Source: Fluviicola sp. (GTDB taxonomy: Bacteria; Bacteroidota; Bacteroidia; Flavobacteriales_D; Crocinitomicaceae). Taken from it: a stretch of DNA of 64,000 nucleotides. The position numbers and the translations under genes were made by a program. Where the stretch lies: NCBI GenBank assembly GCA_017983675.1, contig JAGOAZ010000003.1, positions 34,719 through 98,718 of the forward strand. Reading direction: 5' to 3'. This document shows, piece by piece, positions 48,524 through 58,082 of this stretch (within the stretch, counting starts at the first letter, position 1; the number at the start of each line of letters is the position of its first letter). The notes under the pieces are model-generated. The model ran no database searches and was not told the DNA's origin. It was given only the letters and a program-made list of their open reading frames with translations.

Positions 48524-48880
48524 ATGGCAGCGATTCTTGTTTTTCTAGGAGGAGGAATTGGCGCTTTGTTGCGTTATTTGATTTCACAATTGACGGACAA
48601 AGTAACGACAACGACCTTACCTATTGCAACTTTTGTTTCCAATTTATTAGCATCCGTATTACTCGGCGTTTTCATTGCGCTTTTACGGGATAAAGTCCAA
48701 CATTCTGATTACTGGTATGCCTTTTTGGTGATAGGTGTTTGCGGCGGATTCAGCACTTTTTCATCTTTTGCAAAAGAAAATTTAGCCTTGATTGAAAAGG
48801 GACAATACGTGTATGCAGGATTGAACATCATCGTTTCTGTTGTCCTTTGTATACTTGCTGTTTATCTTGGGAAACGGTAA
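48524..48880 (+). CDS. crcB: Fluoride efflux channel Fluc/CrcB
   Basis: GGGIGALLRY, GVCGGFSTFSSF. Confidence 0.93.
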   Translation: MAAILVFLGGGIGALLRYLISQLTDKVTTTTLPIATFVSNLLASVLLGVFIALLRDKVQHSDYWYAFLVIGVCGGFSTFSSFAKENLALIEKGQYVYAGLNIIVSVVLCILAVYLGKR

Positions 48881-48963
48881 AATTATGCCACCGGAACTAA
48901 TTCATCAATTTGTTGCGCCAATTGTTGACGTTTCGTTACAATCTTTGTTGAGTTTGCATTTTG

Positions 48964-49160
48964 CACCTTTATCACTGAATCACAATTAAAACTTCTAGCA
49001 ACAACCAAAAATAATTGTATATTTAGCTTAACCAATTACCGAGTTATTGCAACACTCACAACCAAACACTCCTACGATTCGAATTTTTCTTGGTACAAAG
49101 ACTGTTCATCCAACTAAAACATTTGGACGAAACAGGAATTGAATTGCTTGTTGTGATTCA
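48964..49160 (+). repeat. Promoter/leader repeat, copy A (5' part only)
   Basis: 48976-49160 aligns to 50611-50794 with about 7 differences in 185 nt; contains TATATTTA at 49018. Confidence 0.92.
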
Positions 49161-49201
49161 TGATTAGAATAGTCATTTGTACGAACTCTATGCATTATAA
49201 T

Positions 49202-50518
49202 ATGAAACAATTTTATTTAGTGCTATTTTTTATTATTAATTGGGGAACCTCATTTACTCAATACAATAAAAAAAAACTGTTTATAGATGAAAACTTAAAC
49301 ACCATTAAAACAGCAATTTACATTGCGTTTCAAAAGCCTGACACAACAATAAATGCAACTGTTTTCAATGCTATTAATGTAACAGATTCTGCTCAAATAA
49401 TAAAAATAATATCCGTTGGTTATGAAGAGACCTTGATGTATTATCATAGTTTTTTGACTACGGATACAATACAATTATACCGACAAGCGAATCAAATAGA
49501 TGAAATAATTATTTCTTCTAATCCCATTAGAAAAGAATCTGAAGATTCAATGCATGTTGTTGATTTTCATTTTATTAATGGCAAATCAGTTGTATTACAA
49601 AAGTCAATTTATCATCACAAAGAAAAGTTTATATGCTATGAGAATAACTGTTTTCATACCAATGAAAAATCGAAACTATATTATCATCATATAAATGGAC
49701 AACAAGTGGTTGAAATTAAAGACTCGATATTTTTATTTGATGGGGTAATACTTTATCCCGTTGAAAGTAAATTATTATACGATTTAAAATTAAAATCTAT
49801 AATAGATTCAAATGACAGCCTTTACTATTTTAAAAATAATTTTTTTTATGAGCTTATAGATGAATATTCATGTCTGGATTTAGAAAACAATAAGGAAAAG
49901 AGTTTACACTTAACTTATGATAGTTTATCATTTATTTTTATTGCAAATTTCTACAAGCAATTCGCTAGAACCCCTCCAATATTTTTATATTACAAGTATC
50001 CACATAGAAATGCGAATAAAAAATTTACTAATCAAGAAAAAATTTCTATAAAAAATTTAAATGTTGAAACAGGTCAATTGTTTAAATACTTAGCTGGGAA
50101 CCCCGGTTTTGTTGATCAAGCAGCTATCCTTGAAAAATCAAGAAGCGAAGCCTGTCTATTAGATTCCACCTTTTATATCTTTGATTTTAACACTAAAAAA
50201 GTATACGCATATCACCGAGATCAATTAATCCAGACAATAAGTTTGAACTTAAAAAATGAATGGTATAAAAATGAATATAAATTGGATGAAACTTTAAAAA
50301 AAGCATATTTTTTATTTAAAACAGAAGAAGGATTAAAGCTTTTTGAAATTGATCTTAATTCAGGGAAATCTTCATTTATAGAGGCTCCCGATGCACTTAA
50401 TTCGTATCATCATTGGGAAATATCTGGAGGTCGTTTGTATTTTTTAAAGACGAATCCAGATTTAGATTGGCAACGAAAATTATTTTCTATTAGTATGGAT
50501 GAATTTAGAACCAAATGA
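49202..50518 (+). CDS. Hypothetical exported protein (possible carboxypeptidase-regulatory-like N-terminus)
   Basis: Long AT-rich ORF; signal peptide MKQFYLVLFF; ISVGYEE...QIDEIIISS resembles CarboxypepD_reg-like ends. Confidence 0.6.
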   Translation: MKQFYLVLFFIINWGTSFTQYNKKKLFIDENLNTIKTAIYIAFQKPDTTINATVFNAINVTDSAQIIKIISVGYEETLMYYHSFLTTDTIQLYRQANQIDEIIISSNPIRKESEDSMHVVDFHFINGKSVVLQKSIYHHKEKFICYENNCFHTNEKSKLYYHHINGQQVVEIKDSIFLFDGVILYPVESKLLYDLKLKSIIDSNDSLYYFKNNFFYELIDEYSCLDLENNKEKSLHLTYDSLSFIFIANFYKQFARTPPIFLYYKYPHRNANKKFTNQEKISIKNLNVETGQLFKYLAGNPGFVDQAAILEKSRSEACLLDSTFYIFDFNTKKVYAYHRDQLIQTISLNLKNEWYKNEYKLDETLKKAYFLFKTEEGLKLFEIDLNSGKSSFIEAPDALNSYHHWEISGGRLYFLKTNPDLDWQRKLFSISMDEFRTK

Positions 50519-50591
50519 ATTCCCATTTACCATAACCCGTTATAAATTGCGGGCCAACTTGCATTTGAATTGTAGCAAAATAGTACAATCG

Positions 50592-50985
50592 TTTCAATCA
50601 CCTTTTAAACTGAATCACAATTAAAACTTCTAGCAACAACCAAAAATAATTGTATATTTAGCTTAACCAATTACCGAGTTATTGCAATACTCACAACCCA
50701 ACACACGTACGATTCGATTTTTCTTGGTACAAAGACTGTTTATCCAACTAAAACATTTGGCCGAAACAGGAATTGAATTGCTTGTTGTGATTCAATTTTA
50801 GATTTATAAAGGAAGTGTTGGAACAGCTCAACTTAATAAAGACGCAAAAGATCTGTTTTTAAGAGCTGTTTGATTGCGCGTCTTTGTTTCTCGTTAGCAC
50901 GATGCGAATTACAAAGGTAGTTGTCTTTTCGTGCTGGAGGATCCGAAAAACGAGTATGAGTAGGGAAAATTTAAATATTCTACAA
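50592..50985 (+). repeat. Promoter/leader repeat, copy B (precedes precursor 1)
   Basis: Shares its 5' 185 nt with copy A and the 3' structured block (aaagac...gagtatgagtaggg, 50838-50965) with copies C and D. Confidence 0.9.
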
Positions 50986-51219
50986 ATGGCAAAAAAGAAA
51001 GAAAACTTACGAGAAAAATTTTCTAAAAATCAGATTGAATTAAGAAAAGTGTTTGGTGGAAGACGAAATAGTGAGCCATCATATTCTGAATGTGCAGGTA
51101 CAGGTTGTTCCATTATAACTAGTCAATCTGAATCTGGTATAATAATTAGAGATTGGGAAGATATTGAATGTGGTGATGATATGTATATGGGGGATGTAAT
51201 ATGTGCCCCAGTTGCCTAA
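50986..51219 (+). CDS. RiPP precursor peptide 1 (77 aa, double-glycine leader)
   Basis: MAKKKENLREKFSKNQIELRKVFGG|RRNSEPSYSECAGTGCSIITSQSESGIIIRDWEDIECGDD...; Lys-rich leader, GG site, Ser/Thr- then Asp/Glu-rich core with 4 Cys. Confidence 0.75.
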   Translation: MAKKKENLREKFSKNQIELRKVFGGRRNSEPSYSECAGTGCSIITSQSESGIIIRDWEDIECGDDMYMGDVICAPVA

Positions 51220-51239
51220 ACAAATTTATTTTATAAAAG

Positions 51240-51265
51240 ATGCAGCAATCAGAAGATTGTCGCAT
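51240..51265 (+). terminator. Hairpin after precursor 1
   Basis: atgc-a-gcaatc-agaa-gattgt-c-gcat imperfect stem; no U-tract. Confidence 0.4.
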
Positions 51266-51287
51266 TGAAAATCCTTAAAGAATTATT

Positions 51288-52175
51288 ATGAAGAATCTAA
51301 TATTTTTTTTGTTTTTGGTTTGCCTTCAAAATATTGCAAGAACACAGGTGTATCAGCACTTTATAACTTTTAAACATCCAGATATGGTTGAAATTCAATT
51401 TTATGCAGAAAAAGCTATTGATTTTTACTATTTAGAAAAGTATGATAGTTCAATTGTTTATAACTATAAAGTGAATAGTGTTCTTCCAGAATACTGGCAA
51501 TCATATTATAACTCGGCAGTTTGTTTTGCAAAGAAAAATCAAAAAGATAGTTGTTTTAAGTACCTAACAAAATATGTAACGTTAGCAAAAGAAAAGGTTA
51601 ATCTTGGTTATTTAAAGAATGAAAATTTAAATGTTTTGAGTCATGATTCGTTAAGTAAATTACAAAGTCTAGCTAAGTCAAATTTAGTATTAGATATCAC
51701 GAAAAATTATGATTTAATCAGCAATCTTGAATTATTAGATGGAAAAGAACAGGAAATACTAGGAAATGGATTTGGAAGAGATCGTAAAAAAGATTCATTG
51801 TTACTAAATAATTTCATTAAATTCTGTTCAATTATTGACACAAACAATTTCCCTTCAACAAGTGAAATAGGCATAGCAACAGGAGCAATACACAGATTGA
51901 TATTACACCTTGATTATGCACCAAATATGCAGTTTAGTTTAGGAAAAAAACTGTTAAAGCAACATAAAAAAGGATACAATAAAAAAGGAAGTGCTTACAT
52001 CATAGATCGATCTTTAAAAAATTTAGGAAAGCCTCAATTATATGGAACAATTTTAGAAAACAATACAAATTCTTTGTATGTGGTAGATGATATGAAAAAA
52101 GTAATTAAAAGAAGAAAAAAACTAAAATTTCAGCGTATTGAGGACTATTTACAAAATAAAAGCATTACCAAATGA
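51288..52175 (+). CDS. Exported TPR + DUF6624-like protein
   Basis: Signal peptide; YYNSAVCFA TPR-like helix; AYIIDRSLKNLGKPQLYGT resembles the DUF6624 C-terminal signature. Confidence 0.65.
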   Translation: MKNLIFFLFLVCLQNIARTQVYQHFITFKHPDMVEIQFYAEKAIDFYYLEKYDSSIVYNYKVNSVLPEYWQSYYNSAVCFAKKNQKDSCFKYLTKYVTLAKEKVNLGYLKNENLNVLSHDSLSKLQSLAKSNLVLDITKNYDLISNLELLDGKEQEILGNGFGRDRKKDSLLLNNFIKFCSIIDTNNFPSTSEIGIATGAIHRLILHLDYAPNMQFSLGKKLLKQHKKGYNKKGSAYIIDRSLKNLGKPQLYGTILENNTNSLYVVDDMKKVIKRRKKLKFQRIEDYLQNKSITK

Positions 52176-52240
52176 CCCTGATATTATCCAATCCATTTGT
52201 TCAAGTTTCTATGAATGAGGTGATTGAATGGTTGTGTTTT
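52172..52240 (+). pseudogene. 5' stub of an ATP-grasp maturase gene
   Basis: An ATGA-coupled ORF reads MTLILSNPFVQVSMNEVIEWL, matching MILILSSYMDASTNVVIDWL of the intact gene at 53929, then runs into repeat copy C and stops. Confidence 0.65.
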
Positions 52241-52672
52241 CAATCACCTTATAAACTGAACCACAAGTTAAAACTACTTGCAACAGCGAAAAATAATTAA
52301 AAAAATCATCAAGATAATTTGGATTTTAGAAAATTAGTTGTATATTTAGTTTAACAATTTACCGAGTTATTGCGACTCCACAACCAAACACACTTACGAC
52401 TCTTTTTTTTGATATCCCCATTGTTCATTATTTGTTAATGATCAATTATTGATTGAAATAATCTCACATTTAGTGAAGTTATCATAAAAAAAATAAGAGC
52501 TTGCTGCAACAAGCCCTTACCCAAAGACACAGGATCTGATGATTGCAGTCCTCTTTGAATGTGCGTCTTTGTTTCTCGCTTGCACGAAGCGATTCACAAA
52601 GATAGTTAATTACTTCGTGCTGGCGGTAACCGAAAAGCGAGTATGAGTAGGGAAGATTTAAACTAAATTTTT
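52238..52672 (+). repeat. Promoter/leader repeat, copy C (precedes precursor 2)
   Basis: The first ~60 nt resemble copy B; 52310-52672 closely matches copy D; promoter TTTG(52318)-19 nt-TATATTTA(52341). Confidence 0.92.
52486..52592 (-). ncRNA. Predicted cis-antisense small RNA (~105 nt) within leader C
   Basis: Minus-strand TATCTTTG at 52597-52604 and a minus-strand terminator gggcttg-ttgcag-caagctc-ttatttttttt ending near 52486; inferred only, no expression data. Confidence 0.45.
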
Positions 52673-52888
52673 ATGAAAAAAAAATCATTAAAAAAGTTGT
52701 CTGAATCATTGATGAAACAACAACTAAACTCAAAATCAATGGGAAATGTATTCGCGGGTGCGGATGGAACATGTGGAACGATCGTATCGACTGACACAAA
52801 ATCAGGAACAAAACTAACATCTGATGATTGTGATTACGATAACGATTGTACTCCAATTGTAGTCCCAGATACAACAATTGTTGTGTAA
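52673..52888 (+). CDS. RiPP precursor peptide 2 (grasp-with-SPASM substrate candidate)
   Basis: MKKKSLKKLSESLMKQQLNSKSMGNVFAG|ADGTCGTIVSTDTKSGTKLTSDDCDYDNDC...; Thr/Ser/Lys followed by an Asp-rich core, upstream of the ATP-grasp gene. Confidence 0.82.
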   Translation: MKKKSLKKLSESLMKQQLNSKSMGNVFAGADGTCGTIVSTDTKSGTKLTSDDCDYDNDCTPIVVPDTTIVV

Positions 52889-52907
52889 TTTTTTATAATA
52901 TAATAAT

Positions 52908-52943
52908 TAGAGTGTGTGAATAATTATATGTTCACACACTCTA
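52908..52943 (+). terminator. Perfect 13-bp hairpin after precursor 2
   Basis: tagagtgtgtgaa-taattatatg-ttcacacactcta. Confidence 0.65.
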
Positions 52944-52963
52944 TTCTTCCAATTTGATCAAAC

Positions 52964-53932
52964 ATGATAAATATTGTCAAACTATTTATTTTTATTCCTT
53001 TTTTCACTTTCACACAGTTTAATGAAAATGAATTAATGAAGTATATTGATACTAAAATTATCATTGATTCGCTTGCAAATGAAAATAAAGTAAATAAAAA
53101 GCAACTATTACACTATTATTCCTCTATTGAGAATAATATCTTATTTAGCAGAAAAGATTATCTTAATCAAGCTGTTGTATATTTAGATGAAAAAGAGTAC
53201 AAAAATGCTGAAAAATCGTTGGAACAGTGTTTGAAATATCAACCTCGACTATTTAATTTAAGTGATTCTTTACAAATAAGAAATAGTGCCTTTTATAAAA
53301 AATTTGAACCGAATGGATTATTAGACAGATTAATGGATAGTCTGATATCAAATACAAAAGAGTATTCATCCTACCGATCTCATTCGGATACTTCAATTCA
53401 TGTTTTTTATGAAACACTTTATCAGCATGATCAATTCATGCGAAGCAATGATGTCCAGATAAAATCTCTCATTTCTTTAAAATATTGGGAAATAGTTGAA
53501 AGCGATCTTTTTAAAATGCAAAATAAGTTTGATAGTATTAATCGTATAGAACTTCAAAATTTTACTAATGATCTAAAGAATATTGATTTTTATCATTTAG
53601 ATGAAAGCGACAAATATACTTTATTTTTGGTGGGCCAACACAGTGATTTTGATCTTGATTTTCAAAAAAGAATACTGGATATTTTTTTTAATAATTATCA
53701 TACCGGATCCATCAAACTTGAAAATCTAGTATATCTCATTGATCGTTATTTACTAAATACAAAAGGATATCAATTATTTGGTTCTCAGTTTGAATTTTTT
53801 GATAAAAAAATAGTATCAAAAAATTTACTTTATCCTATTTCTAAAGTTAACCAAATGCGAAAAATAGCCAGTCTACCCTCGCTAGAATCTTACCTTATTG
53901 ATGCAGATAACCTAATCGACGAAAAAAAATGA
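52964..53932 (+). CDS. DUF6624-like exported protein with TPR-like segment
   Basis: LYQHDQFMRS, LVGQHSD, VYLIDRYLLNTKGYQLFGSQF match the DUF6624 pattern (DQxxR...QH.D...YL.DR...Q.YG.Q). Confidence 0.7.
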   Translation: MINIVKLFIFIPFFTFTQFNENELMKYIDTKIIIDSLANENKVNKKQLLHYYSSIENNILFSRKDYLNQAVVYLDEKEYKNAEKSLEQCLKYQPRLFNLSDSLQIRNSAFYKKFEPNGLLDRLMDSLISNTKEYSSYRSHSDTSIHVFYETLYQHDQFMRSNDVQIKSLISLKYWEIVESDLFKMQNKFDSINRIELQNFTNDLKNIDFYHLDESDKYTLFLVGQHSDFDLDFQKRILDIFFNNYHTGSIKLENLVYLIDRYLLNTKGYQLFGSQFEFFDKKIVSKNLLYPISKVNQMRKIASLPSLESYLIDADNLIDEKK

Positions 53933-54930
53933 TATTGATATTATCTTCCTATATGGATGCTTCTACTAATGTAGTTATTGACTGGTTAAAAGCATTAGGT
54001 CATCAATATATACGAATCAACGCATTTGATGAATTGTCCAATAATATTAATTCCTTAAATATTACAAACGAAAATTCTGATGTGATAATTGAGAGTATGG
54101 GTATTACATTTAATCTGAAAGATATTCATGTAATATGGTACCGTCGTTCTGATATGGAGCATGATTCCTTGATACCAGTAACGACACCGTTTTCTTCATT
54201 AAAAATGGAAATTAATCATTTTTTGATCGAAGAATTTCGTGAATTTAGATCCAGTTTTTACAGTATTTTACGGAATAAATATTGGTTGGGACATCCTAAA
54301 TTAAGTCATGTAAATAAAATACTTCAATTGGAAATTGCCCGAGAAGTTGGTCTAAAAATTCCAGAAACGATCATCACCACAAAAAAGCAGGAATTATATA
54401 ATTTTCTTACACTTCACACGAAAATTATTTGTAAACCAGTAAAACATATTAAGCATTTTGATATTGAAGATAAAATGTTAACAGTTTATACAATAGGAAT
54501 AAACGCTGATGATATTTCAAAATTACCAGATAAATTACCACCTTCGATTATTCAAAAAAACATTGAAAAATCGATCGAATTACGTATTTTTTATCTTGAT
54601 GGAAAATGTTATTCAATGGGTATTGATTCTCAAAAAATGGAAAGTTCAGTTATCGATTTCAGAAATCTGGATGATAACGAAATAACGCGACGTTTTCCAA
54701 TTAAAATCAGTTCATCACTAGAAAAAAAAATAGATCTTTTGATGAAAAAATTAAACCTTAACACTGGGTCTCTGGATATAATAATTTCTAAGGATGATGA
54801 AGCTTATTTTCTTGAGGTAAACCCAGTGGGACAATTTGGAATGATATCACATCCCTGTGGATACAATCTAGAGAAAAAAATTGCAGAATTTTTAGTTGAA
54901 AAAGATAAACAATATGAGCAAAAAAATTGA
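53929..54930 (+). CDS. gwsG: Grasp-with-SPASM system ATP-grasp peptide maturase (graspetide synthetase)
   Basis: MILILS...VIDWL, VIWYRR, NKILQLEIAREVGLKIPETII, ICKP, QKNIEKSIELRIFYL, IDFR, FLEVNPVGQFGMIS. Confidence 0.88.
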   Translation: MILILSSYMDASTNVVIDWLKALGHQYIRINAFDELSNNINSLNITNENSDVIIESMGITFNLKDIHVIWYRRSDMEHDSLIPVTTPFSSLKMEINHFLIEEFREFRSSFYSILRNKYWLGHPKLSHVNKILQLEIAREVGLKIPETIITTKKQELYNFLTLHTKIICKPVKHIKHFDIEDKMLTVYTIGINADDISKLPDKLPPSIIQKNIEKSIELRIFYLDGKCYSMGIDSQKMESSVIDFRNLDDNEITRRFPIKISSSLEKKIDLLMKKLNLNTGSLDIIISKDDEAYFLEVNPVGQFGMISHPCGYNLEKKIAEFLVEKDKQYEQKN

Positions 54931-55132
54931 CGAAATAATTGATGATTTAAGTATGCATAAATTACCACTTAATGTACTTTTTGGAGAAATTAAAGAAAAA
55001 AAGATGAGGTATATTCCAGTTTCTAATTTTGGAAATAACGGCGGTAAGATTATTGCTGAAAATTTTTATAAACCTTTATCAAACTTAACTTTTGATTATG
55101 AAAGATTTAAAGAAATGGAGTCTATATCCTAA
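54914..55132 (+). CDS. Small hypothetical protein (72 aa) between the two maturases
   Basis: MSKKIDEIIDDL...; overlaps both neighbours on the same strand. Confidence 0.55.
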   Translation: MSKKIDEIIDDLSMHKLPLNVLFGEIKEKKMRYIPVSNFGNNGGKIIAENFYKPLSNLTFDYERFKEMESIS

Positions 55133-56201
55133 CTGCATTATTGTACAAGGATACTCTAATAGCATTGTTCTGGATATTTACAGACAACGGATGTTTCGTT
55201 TTGATTCAGAATTAGTACCTTGTTTTGAAGATTTAGATTTATTGCAAGTGCTAGAAACAAAGGCTTTGTTAGAAAATTCTATCATAAAAAGATTAGTTGA
55301 ATTAGATTACCTTACAAGCTCTTCAAGTCACTTTGAATCGACAAACAGTTTTACTGAATACGAATCACCTTTTCCAGTTGATTGTTGGATTGTTGAATTA
55401 AAAGGTGAAGATTCACTGATTTCAAATTTATTAGTGACTTATTTACAGAAAGTAGGTGCGATAGCAATACAATTAATCTTTTCCGAATCCTCCATTGATA
55501 CGATCAAGAAAAACCTGCTGTATATAAAACAAACCAATGTAGATTATGTTGAAGTTGTTGTAAAAGAAGGAAAGAAGTATGAGGCTGATTTTGAGAATAT
55601 TTTTAAGTTAGATGATCGGGTTAGGTTGATTTTTTCTGAAGATCAAGCTTATCTTAATAGAAAAGTAGAATTTGTTAAAAAACAAAACTTCAGTGGTTGG
55701 GTTATTCGACAAAATTCTGCGAGCAATATTTCAGATAAATCTTTCGACATTAATGAAATAGTGTACCTTGAATCTCTGAATCATCATCCATTTTATAACA
55801 AAAGATTTTTTTTGGATGCATCTGGTTTTTTTATGTCCTATCAAGATAGTAGACAGACATTGTTTAACATTAATAGTATGAAATCTATTTCAGATATACA
55901 AGATGTTGTACAGGATATAGATATGATAAAATTCTGGGATGTTAGCACAAAAAAAATTGAAGTTTGTATGGATTGTGAATTTAGAAATTGCTGTATTACC
56001 GATAAAATACCGATGAATAGGAATGGTGATAATTGGTATTATTATGAAGAATGCAACTACAACCCATATATTGCAAAATGGGAAGGAGAAGATGGTTACT
56101 TAACCTTAGCTGAATGTGGCGTAATATCAAATGAAAATGAGTTTTCAATTGACCACGAAAACATCGCATTAATTAATAAAGAGTTGTGGGGAGATGAGTA
56201 A
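55092..56201 (+). CDS. gwsS: Grasp-with-SPASM system SPASM-domain peptide maturase
   Basis: N-terminal NCIIVQGYSNSIVLDIYR; C-terminal IEVCMDCEFRNCCITD...CNYNPY SPASM cysteines; no CxxxCxxC radical-SAM motif visible. Confidence 0.85.
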   Translation: MIMKDLKKWSLYPNCIIVQGYSNSIVLDIYRQRMFRFDSELVPCFEDLDLLQVLETKALLENSIIKRLVELDYLTSSSSHFESTNSFTEYESPFPVDCWIVELKGEDSLISNLLVTYLQKVGAIAIQLIFSESSIDTIKKNLLYIKQTNVDYVEVVVKEGKKYEADFENIFKLDDRVRLIFSEDQAYLNRKVEFVKKQNFSGWVIRQNSASNISDKSFDINEIVYLESLNHHPFYNKRFFLDASGFFMSYQDSRQTLFNINSMKSISDIQDVVQDIDMIKFWDVSTKKIEVCMDCEFRNCCITDKIPMNRNGDNWYYYEECNYNPYIAKWEGEDGYLTLAECGVISNENEFSIDHENIALINKELWGDE

Positions 56202-56302
56202 ATTCTATTTCTACCAACAAACATACATTATTGTTGGTCCAAAGTCTTATTATTGATGATTAATTAAAAGTTTATTTGCATATAAATGCGAAATTAAATT
56301 AC

Positions 56303-56665
56303 AAGATAACTTGTCATTTAAAAAATTAATTGTATATTCGATTAACCATTTACCGATTTATTGCAATACAAACATCCAAACACACGTACGACTCTTTTTT
56401 TTTGATATGCCCATTGCTCATTATTTGCTAATGAACAATTTTTTATTTCAATAATCTCACATTTGGTGAAGTTATCATAAAAAAAATAAGAGCTTGCTGC
56501 AACAAGCCCTTACCCAAAGACACAGGATCTGAAGATTGCAGTCCTATTTGAATGTGCGTCTTTGTTTCTCGCTTGCACGAAGCGATTTTCAAAGATAGTT
56601 ATTTTTTCGTGCTGGCGATTCCGAAAAGCGAGTATGAGTAGGGAAAATTTAAACTAAAATTTAGT
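56303..56665 (+). repeat. Promoter/leader repeat, copy D (precedes precursor 3)
   Basis: Closely matches 52310-52672; promoter TTG(56311)-19 nt-TATATTCG(56333). Confidence 0.92.
56479..56585 (-). ncRNA. Predicted cis-antisense small RNA within leader D
   Basis: Minus-strand TATCTTTG at 56590-56597 and the same terminator hairpin plus T-tract ending near 56479; inferred only. Confidence 0.45.
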
Positions 56666-56869
56666 ATGAAAAATTCAAAAATGAGTTTGGAGGCTTTCAA
56701 AGCTAAAGCTGAAAACCAAAATGTAGAAATTGCAATGGATAATATTCAAGGCGGAAATTTGTTTAATTGTCATGGAGAATCCGGACAAGCTGGAAAGAAA
56801 ATAGGCAGATGGATTACTGATAGAGTTGACAATTGGTTAAATGGGCCAAATGGACCACAGTTACCATAA
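56666..56869 (+). CDS. RiPP/bacteriocin-like precursor peptide 3 (double-glycine leader)
   Basis: MKNSKMSLEAFKAKAENQNVEIAMDNIQGG|NLFNCHGESGQAGKKIGRWITDRVDNWLNGPNGPQLP. Confidence 0.8.
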   Translation: MKNSKMSLEAFKAKAENQNVEIAMDNIQGGNLFNCHGESGQAGKKIGRWITDRVDNWLNGPNGPQLP

Positions 56870-56884
56870 ACAATTTTGAAATAG

Positions 56885-56921
56885 AATCTAGTAGTTAGCT
56901 TTCAGTTAACTACTAGGTTTT
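56885..56921 (+). terminator. Hairpin/terminator after precursor 3
   Basis: aatctagtagttagct-ttc-agttaactactaggtt: 16 bp with two G.U pairs, followed by T residues. Confidence 0.7.
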
Positions 56922-56936
56922 TAATGCATTTTTATT

Positions 56937-58082
56937 ATGAAAATATTTTTTTCCTTTTTTTTTCTTCTAATAAGTTCATGTTCTTTGATGAAGAACAAAT
57001 TGTTTAAATATTTTTATTATGAACCAAAAATAAAATATGAATTTTATAGCGAAATTCCCTACGAAATAAAAAATGGACTAATTCTAATTCATCTTAATAT
57101 AGACGGTTCTGATTGTAAATTTGTTTTTGATACAGGTTCTAAAAGCTATATCAAAAATCAAATTCAAAAAAAAATGGATTTGCGGCACTATTTTAATTCC
57201 GCATCAACTGATGCTAATAAAATTAAAGTAGAATCTGAAATAGTTTTAGGAAATTTAGCTTTGGGAGACTTGAAAGTTAATAATTTTAAATTTCACACTA
57301 AAGAATCATTCCCTTTTGATTGTCATAATACAATAGACGGAATATTGGGTAATGACATATTGAACCAAGGTGTTTTCTTTTTCGATAATGATGCGAAAAA
57401 ACTAATTGTTACAAACTCAATTAATAAAATTGATGATTTGAAAGAATTTAAAAGGTTACCAATTAAAATAAATTTAGGTGACATTATATTAAAAAAAAAT
57501 AAAGAAGTTTTTACATTAGATTCGGGATATTCATATGGTTTCATTTTAACAAATCGAAAGTCTTTTTTATATAATGATACTTGTGAAAGCAAGATTTTTA
57601 TGCAGAATATAAACGCATTAAATTCTTCTCGACTTAAAGAGACAATTTATCAAAACGGAGATTTATGTCTTGCAGGAAATAAATACTCAGGAATAATCCA
57701 ATTTACAGATGGTTTTGATACAAATATTTTAGGTAGCTATTGGTTTTTTGCTAATAATATTATTATTGACATAGATAAAAAGGTTATCTATTTAAAGAAA
57801 AAAAAAATATACAGCATTAACCAAATATCAAATATATTAAACATTAATTTTTCTTTCTTAAATGGTAACGTTGTTATTTCTGGAATTTCGAATAGTATTT
57901 CAAGTGTAAAGTTGTATGATCATGTTTTGAAAGTTAACAATGTTGATTTAAAAGACATTCACAGTGAATGTGAACTACAAGAAGTTCTTAAATCTCAAGA
58001 TAAAGAATTAGGATTTAACCTTGATTTAAAGCGAGATAGAGATACTATTAGCGTTTTTTTATCAAAGGAAGATCTATACTAA
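56937..58082 (+). CDS. Lipoprotein with tandem retropepsin-like aspartyl protease domains and a probable C-terminal PDZ
   Basis: Lipobox LISSC; FVFDTGS and FTLDSGY catalytic-type motifs; DGILGNDIL; HVLKVNNVD PDZ-like. Confidence 0.72.
   Translation: MKIFFSFFFLLISSCSLMKNKLFKYFYYEPKIKYEFYSEIPYEIKNGLILIHLNIDGSDCKFVFDTGSKSYIKNQIQKKMDLRHYFNSASTDANKIKVESEIVLGNLALGDLKVNNFKFHTKESFPFDCHNTIDGILGNDILNQGVFFFDNDAKKLIVTNSINKIDDLKEFKRLPIKINLGDIILKKNKEVFTLDSGYSYGFILTNRKSFLYNDTCESKIFMQNINALNSSRLKETIYQNGDLCLAGNKYSGIIQFTDGFDTNILGSYWFFANNIIIDIDKKVIYLKKKKIYSINQISNILNINFSFLNGNVVISGISNSISSVKLYDHVLKVNNVDLKDIHSECELQEVLKSQDKELGFNLDLKRDRDTISVFLSKEDLY

Follow-up and report, generated by a model that had tools for sequence, protein, structure and literature searches.

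The regulation of RiPP precursors in Bacteroidota is essentially uncharted. The 64,000-nt stretch of Fluviicola sp. DNA analysed here (the window) contains three leaders of such precursors whose minus strand carries an 8-mer that reads as a Bacteroidota -7 promoter element. An earlier note on this DNA placed the 8-mer in a free loop and proposed that it starts an antisense RNA of ~105 nt, which would refold the leader and subject the precursor genes to a control of the type I toxin-antitoxin kind. The question raised by this locus is whether the 8-mer promotes such an antisense RNA, whether it is part of a structured RNA made from the opposite strand, or both.

Leader cassettes in the window and in other genomes

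Between positions 48964 and 56660, a promoter/upstream module is repeated four times (repeats A to D). Only repeats B, C and D run on into a conserved leader of ~170 nt, and the genes behind these leaders encode hydrophilic Gly-Gly-type precursors of 67-77 aa (Table 1). The ATP-grasp maturase of cassette C is a grasp-with-spasm protein (TIGR04192, 272 bits for a cut-off of 230), and its SPASM partner matches TIGR04193 more weakly (73 bits for a cut-off of 175).

A BLAST search of 401 genomes of the family found the full leader in just three further genomes (L007, L008 and L009). No further full leaders came from pattern scans of a metagenome collection and of 185,579 species genomes, the sole returns from the latter being L036 and L037, which are the L008 and L007 loci, respectively. 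A looser scan of metagenome contigs returned 34 loci, all with the general 3' module and without the 5' domain described below, and four loci found through maturase homologues had the general module alone (L072) or nothing. Exact-protein look-ups with precursors C and D brought back identical DNA, and a regular-expression search over all of the retrieved loci found no additional leaders of the P0 or S1 type. The comparison covers six leaders (B, C, D, L007, L008 and L009), which were counted as five independent lineages, with C and D taken as one. The gene order is identical in L036 and L009 (leader, Gly-Gly precursor, a DUF6624-like gene and ATP-grasp), and the L036 locus, which was read further than that of L009, continues with a SPASM gene and a C39 exporter. 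Since the lineages are old, with the ATP-grasp maturases of L036 and of the window being 38% identical, the features kept in the non-coding leader are under selection.

The upstream module common to repeats A to D (TAATTGTATATTTAG..TTACCGAGTTATTGCAA..ACACACGTACGA, at 49000-49090, 50635-50725, 52322-52410 and 56314-56402) contains only an imperfect sense -7 box, TATATTTA, together with a near-palindrome, GAGTTATTGCAATACTC. The orthologues have perfect TAAGTTTG boxes at the matching place, at -108 from H1 in L037 and at -173 in L009. The shared module is probably the sense promoter with an operator. On the sense strand, hairpins lie directly 3' of precursors C (52905-52946) and D (56888-56918), the latter with a T-run and terminator-like, and in L037 the precursor is likewise followed by a strong terminator (1063-1086). 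Each precursor may form a short monocistronic unit ahead of the maturase genes. Just upstream of the island there is an ORF for a CrcB/FluC-like fluoride channel (48524-48880), and Rfam detected no fluoride riboswitch in the window. Candidate small ORFs within the leader were rejected for both strands, as they are conserved neither between C and D nor in the orthologues.

Table 1. Coordinates of the leader elements, the precursor genes and the proposed antisense unit in the window.
Feature	Position	Strand	Remarks
Precursor B gene, Gly-Gly-type	50986-51219		Behind leader B
Precursor C gene, Gly-Gly-type, 71 aa	52673-52888	+	Behind leader C; leader end VFAG
Precursor D gene, Gly-Gly-type	56666-56869		Behind leader D
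U-rich tail, copy C	52486-52496	-	Reads UUAUUUUUUUU on minus, A-run on plus
H1, copy C	52497-52516	-	Proposed terminator stem-loop; minus GGGCUUG-UUGCAG-CAAGCUC with G.U, plus GAGCUUG-CUGCAA-CAAGCCC with A.C
H1 loop CTGCAA (PK1)	52504-52509	.	Pairs with TTGCAG at 52543-52548; all Watson-Crick, strand not assignable
PK1 partner of H1 loop, TTGCAG	52543-52548	.	~35 nt from the H1 loop
P0 5' arm, CAAAGACAC	52522-52530	.	CAC/GTG in C and D, CGC/GCG elsewhere (compensatory)
P0 3' arm, GTGCGTCTTTG	52561-52571	.	Last 7 nt (52565-52571) double as S1 5' arm
S2 hairpin, TCGCTT-GCACG-AAGCGA	52576-52592	+	Nested in S1; also would-be 5' hairpin of the antisense RNA
P2 5' arm, GCACGAAG	52582-52589	+	S2 loop and part of S2 3' arm
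P2 3' arm, CTTCGTGC	52613-52620	+	
Antisense start site, predicted	52592-52593	-	Outer base of S2; from the spacing in PMC9723704
-7 box, copy B, TACCTTTG	50912-50919	-	
-7 box, copy C, TATCTTTG	52597-52604	-	Match to Bacteroidota sigma-A -7 box; plus strand reads CAAAGATA
-7 box, copy D, TATCTTTG	56590-56597	-	
3' module, copy C, CTGGCGGTAACCGAAAAGCGAGTATGAGTAGG	52620-52651	+	Member of a widespread Bacteroidota 5'-UTR motif
3' module, copies B and D	50934-50964; 56612-56642		
Copy D unit	56479-56597	-	Tail 56479-56489, H1 56490-56509, box 56590-56597
Copy B unit	50806-50919	-	Box 50912-50919 kept; H1 reduced to GTTG/CAAC (50817-50832); T-run absent

The sense strand of the leader forms a covarying pseudoknot

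The 8-mer does not lie in a free loop, contrary to the earlier note: positions 52597-52603 (CAAAGAT) form the 3' arm of a helix, S1, with 52565-52571 (GTCTTTG), which encloses the hairpin S2. On the plus strand, all six leaders pair CAAAG(N)T with an upstream G/A(N)CTTTG at a distance of ~25 nt. S1 is 100% paired in all six, with two compensatory pairs (T-A to A-T in L008 and L009, and G-C to A-T in L008), and an A-to-G change in B turns one pair into a plus-strand U.G wobble. The stem of S2 has been wholly replaced between lineages (TCGCTT/AAGCGA, TTCCA/TGGAA and CTGCAT/ATGCAG), and its loop (GCAC..) pairs with ..GTGC just upstream of the 3' module to form P2, whose 4-bp core is 100% paired in the six leaders with two compensatory pairs (at least four compensatory changes overall). 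Since P2 spans the 8-mer, it can form only in an RNA that exceeds the proposed antisense RNA in length, and the 8-mer is one arm of an H-type pseudoknot helix rather than a free loop. The structure as a whole has 14 pairs with double changes, compared to 5.1 in shuffled alignments (0 of 500 reached this number), and 88% of its cells are paired, compared to 34-44% when the partners were slid. All wobbles of the helices S1, S2 and P2 (7 of 7) read G.U on the plus strand and on that strand alone. It is hence well supported by the comparison that the plus-strand 5' leader of the grasp-with-spasm precursors is a covarying pseudoknotted RNA, and equally that the 8-mer consists of the S1 3' arm with one further base.

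The helix P0 (AAAGACRC with GYGCGTCTTT) competes with S1 for the same 7 nt. In copy C, the near-copies CAAAGAC (in the P0 5' arm, 52522-52530) and CAAAGAT (the S1 3' arm, 52597-52603) vie for GTCTTTG at 52565-52571. This competition looks like the layout of a two-state switch on the sense strand, for which the antisense RNA is not required. As leader B keeps the P0 and PK1 pairings without a terminator, these helices are maintained without the antisense unit in at least one copy. An alternative also exists for GCGAG, which can pair with an upstream CTCGC (the P1 of the earlier note) or locally with CTGGC, in the style of the general module; P1 is compensated between B (CTCGT/ACGAG) and C/D (CTCGC/GCGAG), and is not kept in L007 or L008. 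Two long-range pairings were rejected: one of the A-run with the U-rich P2 loop, which reaches 9 bp in D and has no compensating change in C, and one of the invariant UAGUU with AACUA, which is present in four of the six leaders only. The 5' domain made up of H1, P0 and PK1 is confined to a few Crocinitomicaceae leaders.

The 3' module of the leader has the consensus CTGGC-GG-loop-CCGAAAA-GCGAG-N-ATGAGTAGG (CUGGC-GG-loop-CCGAAAA-GCGAG-UAUGAGUAGG as RNA). It was found in the window and at L010-L035, L038-L071 and L072, that is, in Crocinitomicaceae, other Bacteroidota and metagenomes, where it precedes many genes for lipoproteins, exported proteins and RiPP precursors; in L072, another grasp-with-spasm island, it stands before three precursor-like genes (at 2678, 6620 and 10619). 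Its closing stem covaries (GC in 15 cases, CG in 7, AU in 4 and UA in 2). As the module is always on the strand of the gene, ~18-24 nt upstream of the ATG, the 3' half of the leader is read as a sense-strand RNA. The general form of the motif can be written xGC-GG-loop-CCGAAAA-GCx'-N3-6-(A/G)AGUAGG, and a P2-like helix (...GTGC/ATTGC) often abuts its TGG.

Judged from these loci, the 3' module may be an undescribed and widespread cis-regulatory element. It was rejected as a promoter of the ECF sigma type, the would-be -35 AAC being in the variable hairpin loop, as well as of the sigma-54 type, with a GG-to-GC spacing of 9 to 11. Rfam gave no match at gathering thresholds on either strand of the window. 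Relaxing the cut-off to E ≤ 1 over 48900-57000 gave two hits below threshold: one to BTnc231 that crosses the leader on the minus strand (E 0.97; 20.7 bits, with 80.4 required) and one to Plastid-psbM beyond the leader, at 52881-52946 (E 0.59; 28.9 bits, with 52.7 required). A literature search on the module sequence and on grasp-with-spasm regulation found nothing relevant.

The promoter-like 8-mer and its conservation

The three minus-strand TAnnTTTG 8-mers lie exactly where they had been placed before (Table 1). This motif occurs 102 times in the window, compared to 94.3 ± 8.7 times in shuffled sequences, and one box on one strand of a ~170-nt leader has a chance expectation of ~13%. As its frequency is no lower than chance, the motif by itself carries no weight. 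Its conservation in homologous leaders was confirmed in part: it is perfect in B, C, D, L007 and L009, and reads TAACTTTA in L008/L036, where the G-C to A-T change in S1 removes the otherwise highly conserved G of the box and is compensated in the helix. The view that the 8-mer is conserved while its flanks vary needs to be corrected, since the invariant block across the six leaders is AAAGnTAGTT, which is offset from the box; the G position of the box varies, and three bases outside the box are invariant. The pairing of S1 by itself accounts for most of the conservation of the box.

The G of the box is 95-101 nt from H1 in five of the six leaders, and the positions of the other antisense boxes vary. 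A -33 box is missing, as the earlier note had also observed: no TTG occurs at -33 spacing in any of the six leaders, positions -19 to -23 read ACCGC/CCAGC in all six, and the nearest T-run (TTTTCGG) is 27 nt away. The box is expected at -12 to -5 relative to the transcription start site, with the start ~5 nt after it (PMC9723704). This spacing places the predicted antisense start at the outer base of S2, where each of the six leaders would have a pyrimidine at +1. L009 has in addition a perfect box on the sense strand, TAGTTTTG, 19 nt before H1. A further perfect antisense box occurs in each lineage at 208-450 nt from H1, and for L036, with its degenerate S1 box, it is the sole one (offset 215, just within the precursor gene).

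A terminator-like hairpin recurs on the minus strand

The hairpin with a T-run that had been reported ~105 nt downstream of the box was confirmed in C (52522 to 52491) and D (56515 to 56484). These sites are the two best among six terminator-like sites in 10 kb, and rank 7th-8th among the 61 hairpin sites with T-runs found by a scan of the whole window (-13.2 kcal/mol, T8). The other high-ranking intergenic sites that could be placed by an ORF filter lie 26-55 nt after an ORF on the same strand and are ordinary gene terminators; one further site of the whole-window scan is behind precursor D. No minus-strand gene ends at H1, and the proposed antisense RNA is the sole candidate unit there. For copy B, in which a weak equivalent had been seen, the reduced H1 stem is present and there is neither a terminator-like site nor a T-run.

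In the orthologues, the H1 equivalent of L037 is one of only two terminator-like sites in 3.9 kb, and that of L036 is the only one in 5 kb; both equivalents are on the antisense strand. L009 was missed by the scan, presumably because a greedy stem extension tolerating G-T pairs consumes the T-run; read directly, its antisense strand is UGGGGAUG-UUGCAG-CAUCUCCA-UUUUUUU. A terminator-like hairpin is thus found on the minus strand, ~100 nt from the box, in four of the five independent leader lineages. The minus-strand tail behind H1 given for C in Table 1 is shared by D and is matched by UUUUUUU in L009; the tails of L008 (UCUUUU) and L007 (UAAUUCUUUAUUUUU) are only moderately U-rich. On the plus strand, H1 is immediately preceded by a purine- and A-rich tract, which has persisted through very deep divergence. 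The stems of H1 come in three unrelated, covarying versions (GAGCTTG/CAAGCCC, GCAGAGGGTA/TACCCCCTGC and TGGAGATG/CATCCCCA), each with exactly one non-Watson-Crick pair; in five of five sequences, the minus strand has G.U at this pair and the plus strand A.C. The contact of the H1 loop, PK1, also covaries in three versions (CTGCAA/TTGCAG, CGGTAA/TTACCG in L007 and AACAGCT/AGCTGTT in B), and H1 therefore belongs to a folded RNA.

We compared the folding of both strands over the 107-nt stretch of the proposed antisense RNA. The minus strand folds better than the plus strand in four of the five lineages: in C, it reaches -37.1 kcal/mol (z -3.7), compared to -27.5 kcal/mol (z -2.0) for the plus strand, and the z scores for minus and plus are -4.5 and -2.2 in L009, -4.9 and -3.8 in L008, and -1.6 and 0 in L007. 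Leader B has no stable minus-strand fold (z about 0, compared to -0.6 for plus). The polarity of the wobbles flips between S2 and the 3' arm of S1, and the start predicted from the box (~52592) falls at the same point; this asymmetry was noticed post hoc and concerns five independent lineages.

Leaders C and D differ at two positions of the 107-nt stretch. Over H1-P0-S2 and the preceding 30 nt (52456-52594 and 56449-56587), three differences are seen in ~140 nt, with flanks of 83-90% identity on either side. The near-identity of C and D at H1-P0-S2 reflects either an extra constraint or a recent gene conversion.

Discussion

The sense leader is the solid result of this sequence analysis, and the antisense unit is a hypothesis whose chances are roughly even. 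In the mechanism that we propose, two overlapping RNA elements, the sense leader and an antisense RNA, would be encoded by one DNA segment. The 8-mer of C, D and most of the orthologues would double as a sigma-A -7 box of the minus strand, from which transcription would start ~5 nt past the box, at the base of S2, and end at H1 and its U-tract. The product would be an RNA of ~105 nt with three hairpins (S2', P0' and H1'), the terminator loop contacting that of the middle hairpin by base pairing. Its sequence would be fully complementary to the 5' half of the leader (H1, P0, the 5' arm of S1, S2 and the 5' arm of P2), and a duplex of the two would block the formation of S1, S2, P2 and P0, leading either to an altered presentation of the 3' module and the start region or to a substrate for RNase III. 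The antisense RNA could also shift the balance of GCGAG between its CTCGC and CTGGC pairings, and the convergent transcription might interfere directly. As C and D differ at only two of the 107 positions, the antisense RNA of each could act on the leader of the other. Copy B probably makes no discrete antisense RNA.

What speaks for the antisense unit suggested by the earlier note is the recurrent covarying terminator, the minus-strand fold and the fixed offset of the box in five of the six leaders; what has to be given up is the box as an element apart from the leader fold, given that it is an arm of S1. The case against an antisense RNA consists of the chance-level frequency of the 8-mer, a conservation that S1 explains, the loss of the G in L008/L036, the pyrimidine at +1 and the lack of a -33 box. 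Several of these points, namely the frequency, the full pairing of S1 including the compensatory change that destroys the box G, the offset of the conserved block and the lack of a -33 box, would be expected if the box were incidental and the sense leader the sole functional RNA, with H1, P0 and PK1 as its parts, an A-tract that has a sense role or none, and minus-strand transcripts that are noise. Leader B, with P0 and PK1 and no terminator, and the switch-like competition of P0 and S1 also agree with an incidental box, and the sense-strand box of L009 before H1 would allow the A-run to be the sense 5' end. However, an incidental box requires that three independently evolved H1 stems each acquired an A.C mismatch and never a plus-strand G.U; nor does it sit easily with the A-rich tract so deeply kept 5' of H1, the canonical minus-strand terminators in four of five lineages and minus-strand folds that are consistently more stable than shuffles. 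We consider an incidental box to be a serious possibility, although a rather doubtful one.

H1 could also be a genuine minus-strand terminator for transcripts that start elsewhere, for instance at the variable boxes in or after the precursor gene, with the S1 box playing a minor part. Such transcripts would be longer antisense RNAs that cover the start codon, or a pervasive antisense transcription that H1 keeps off the sense promoter. Every lineage offers a second box for such starts, which in L036 is the only one, and in Flavobacterium psychrophilum, non-canonical initiation or read-through gives rise to most antisense RNAs (PMC9723704). However, the alternative boxes shift in position between lineages, and S1 and P2 would be present as complements in a longer minus-strand RNA, with their wobbles turned into A.C mismatches. 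In addition, the flip of wobble polarity falls at the start that the S1 box predicts. A start elsewhere is therefore unlikely in our view, in either of its two forms. To return to the proposed unit, an antisense RNA of ~105 nt that overlaps the folded leader and starts at the box embedded in S1 has, in our estimate, a chance only just short of even, and that some minus-strand RNA ends at H1 is roughly an even matter. More tentatively, and at somewhat less than even, we propose a conserved three-hairpin cis-antisense sRNA of ~105 nt in Crocinitomicaceae grasp-with-spasm leaders, with a box made of sense-helix nucleotides and a loop-loop contact, which would set the output of the precursors and let C and D cross-regulate. 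These estimates start from a low prior, weighted by approximate likelihood ratios for the box and its incomplete conservation, the lack of a -33 box, the conserved terminator, the wobble polarity and the exception of B.

Even alone, the sense leader represents an undescribed structured RNA, resting on a 5'-UTR module for which Rfam has no family. Should the antisense RNA be made, the locus would be a clear case of RNA structure coded on both strands, with a promoter embedded in an RNA helix of the opposite strand and the two strands of one ~120-bp segment encoding two interlocked structured RNAs. It would then be, to our knowledge, the first antisense control of a RiPP precursor, and it would offer a handle for switching on silent clusters in heterologous hosts. 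If it is not made, the locus serves as a warning that a perfect -7 box in AT-rich Bacteroidota DNA can be a by-product of RNA pairing.

Comparison with known systems

Countertranscripts control plasmid replication in several systems, such as CopA/CopT of R1, RNAI/RNAII of ColE1, RNAIII of pIP501 and RNAI of pT181. The proposed antisense RNA would resemble them as a short (~60-110 nt) structured RNA that has its promoter inside the target leader, ends at an intrinsic terminator, matches the 5' part of the folded leader by full complementarity and refolds the leader. Unlike them, it would belong to a chromosomal RiPP precursor cassette and to a promoter that shares its bases with a sense helix, and it is predicted from sequence. 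The analogy with replication attenuators drawn earlier does not extend to the mode of action: no plus-strand hairpin with a T-run lies between H1 and the precursor ATG, and pT181-type attenuation is therefore excluded.

With the type I toxin-antitoxin systems (hok/sok, fst/RNAII and txpA/ratA), the locus would share a small cis-encoded antisense RNA that overlaps the folded 5' region of a short-peptide mRNA. Since the targets are not toxins, the likeness to type I control claimed in the earlier note does not amount to membership: instead of short hydrophobic membrane toxins, the leaders precede hydrophilic Gly-Gly-type precursors of 67-77 aa with dedicated maturases (TIGR04192 and its SPASM partner). 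The locus gives no sign of toxicity or of the arrangement of a stable mRNA with an unstable antisense RNA.

Closer in phylogeny are the cis-antisense sRNAs of Bacteroides polysaccharide utilisation loci and the antisense and independent transcripts mapped in Flavobacterium psychrophilum (PMC7366714; PMC9723704). They come from the same phylum, share the TAnnTTTG -7 grammar and lie at the 5' ends of regulated operons. Whereas these RNAs were mapped as transcripts, the present one is predicted from its sequence and would lie inside a covarying sense structure, with which it is conserved.

The sense leader itself can be compared to the pseudoknotted, riboswitch-like RNAs of 5'-UTRs. Unlike those, it matches no Rfam family, and its 5' domain of H1, P0 and PK1 occurs in few Crocinitomicaceae; like them, it combines covarying helices, a pseudoknot of the S2 loop in P2, competing pairings (P0 with S1, and CTCGC or CTGGC with GCGAG) and a module close to the start codon.
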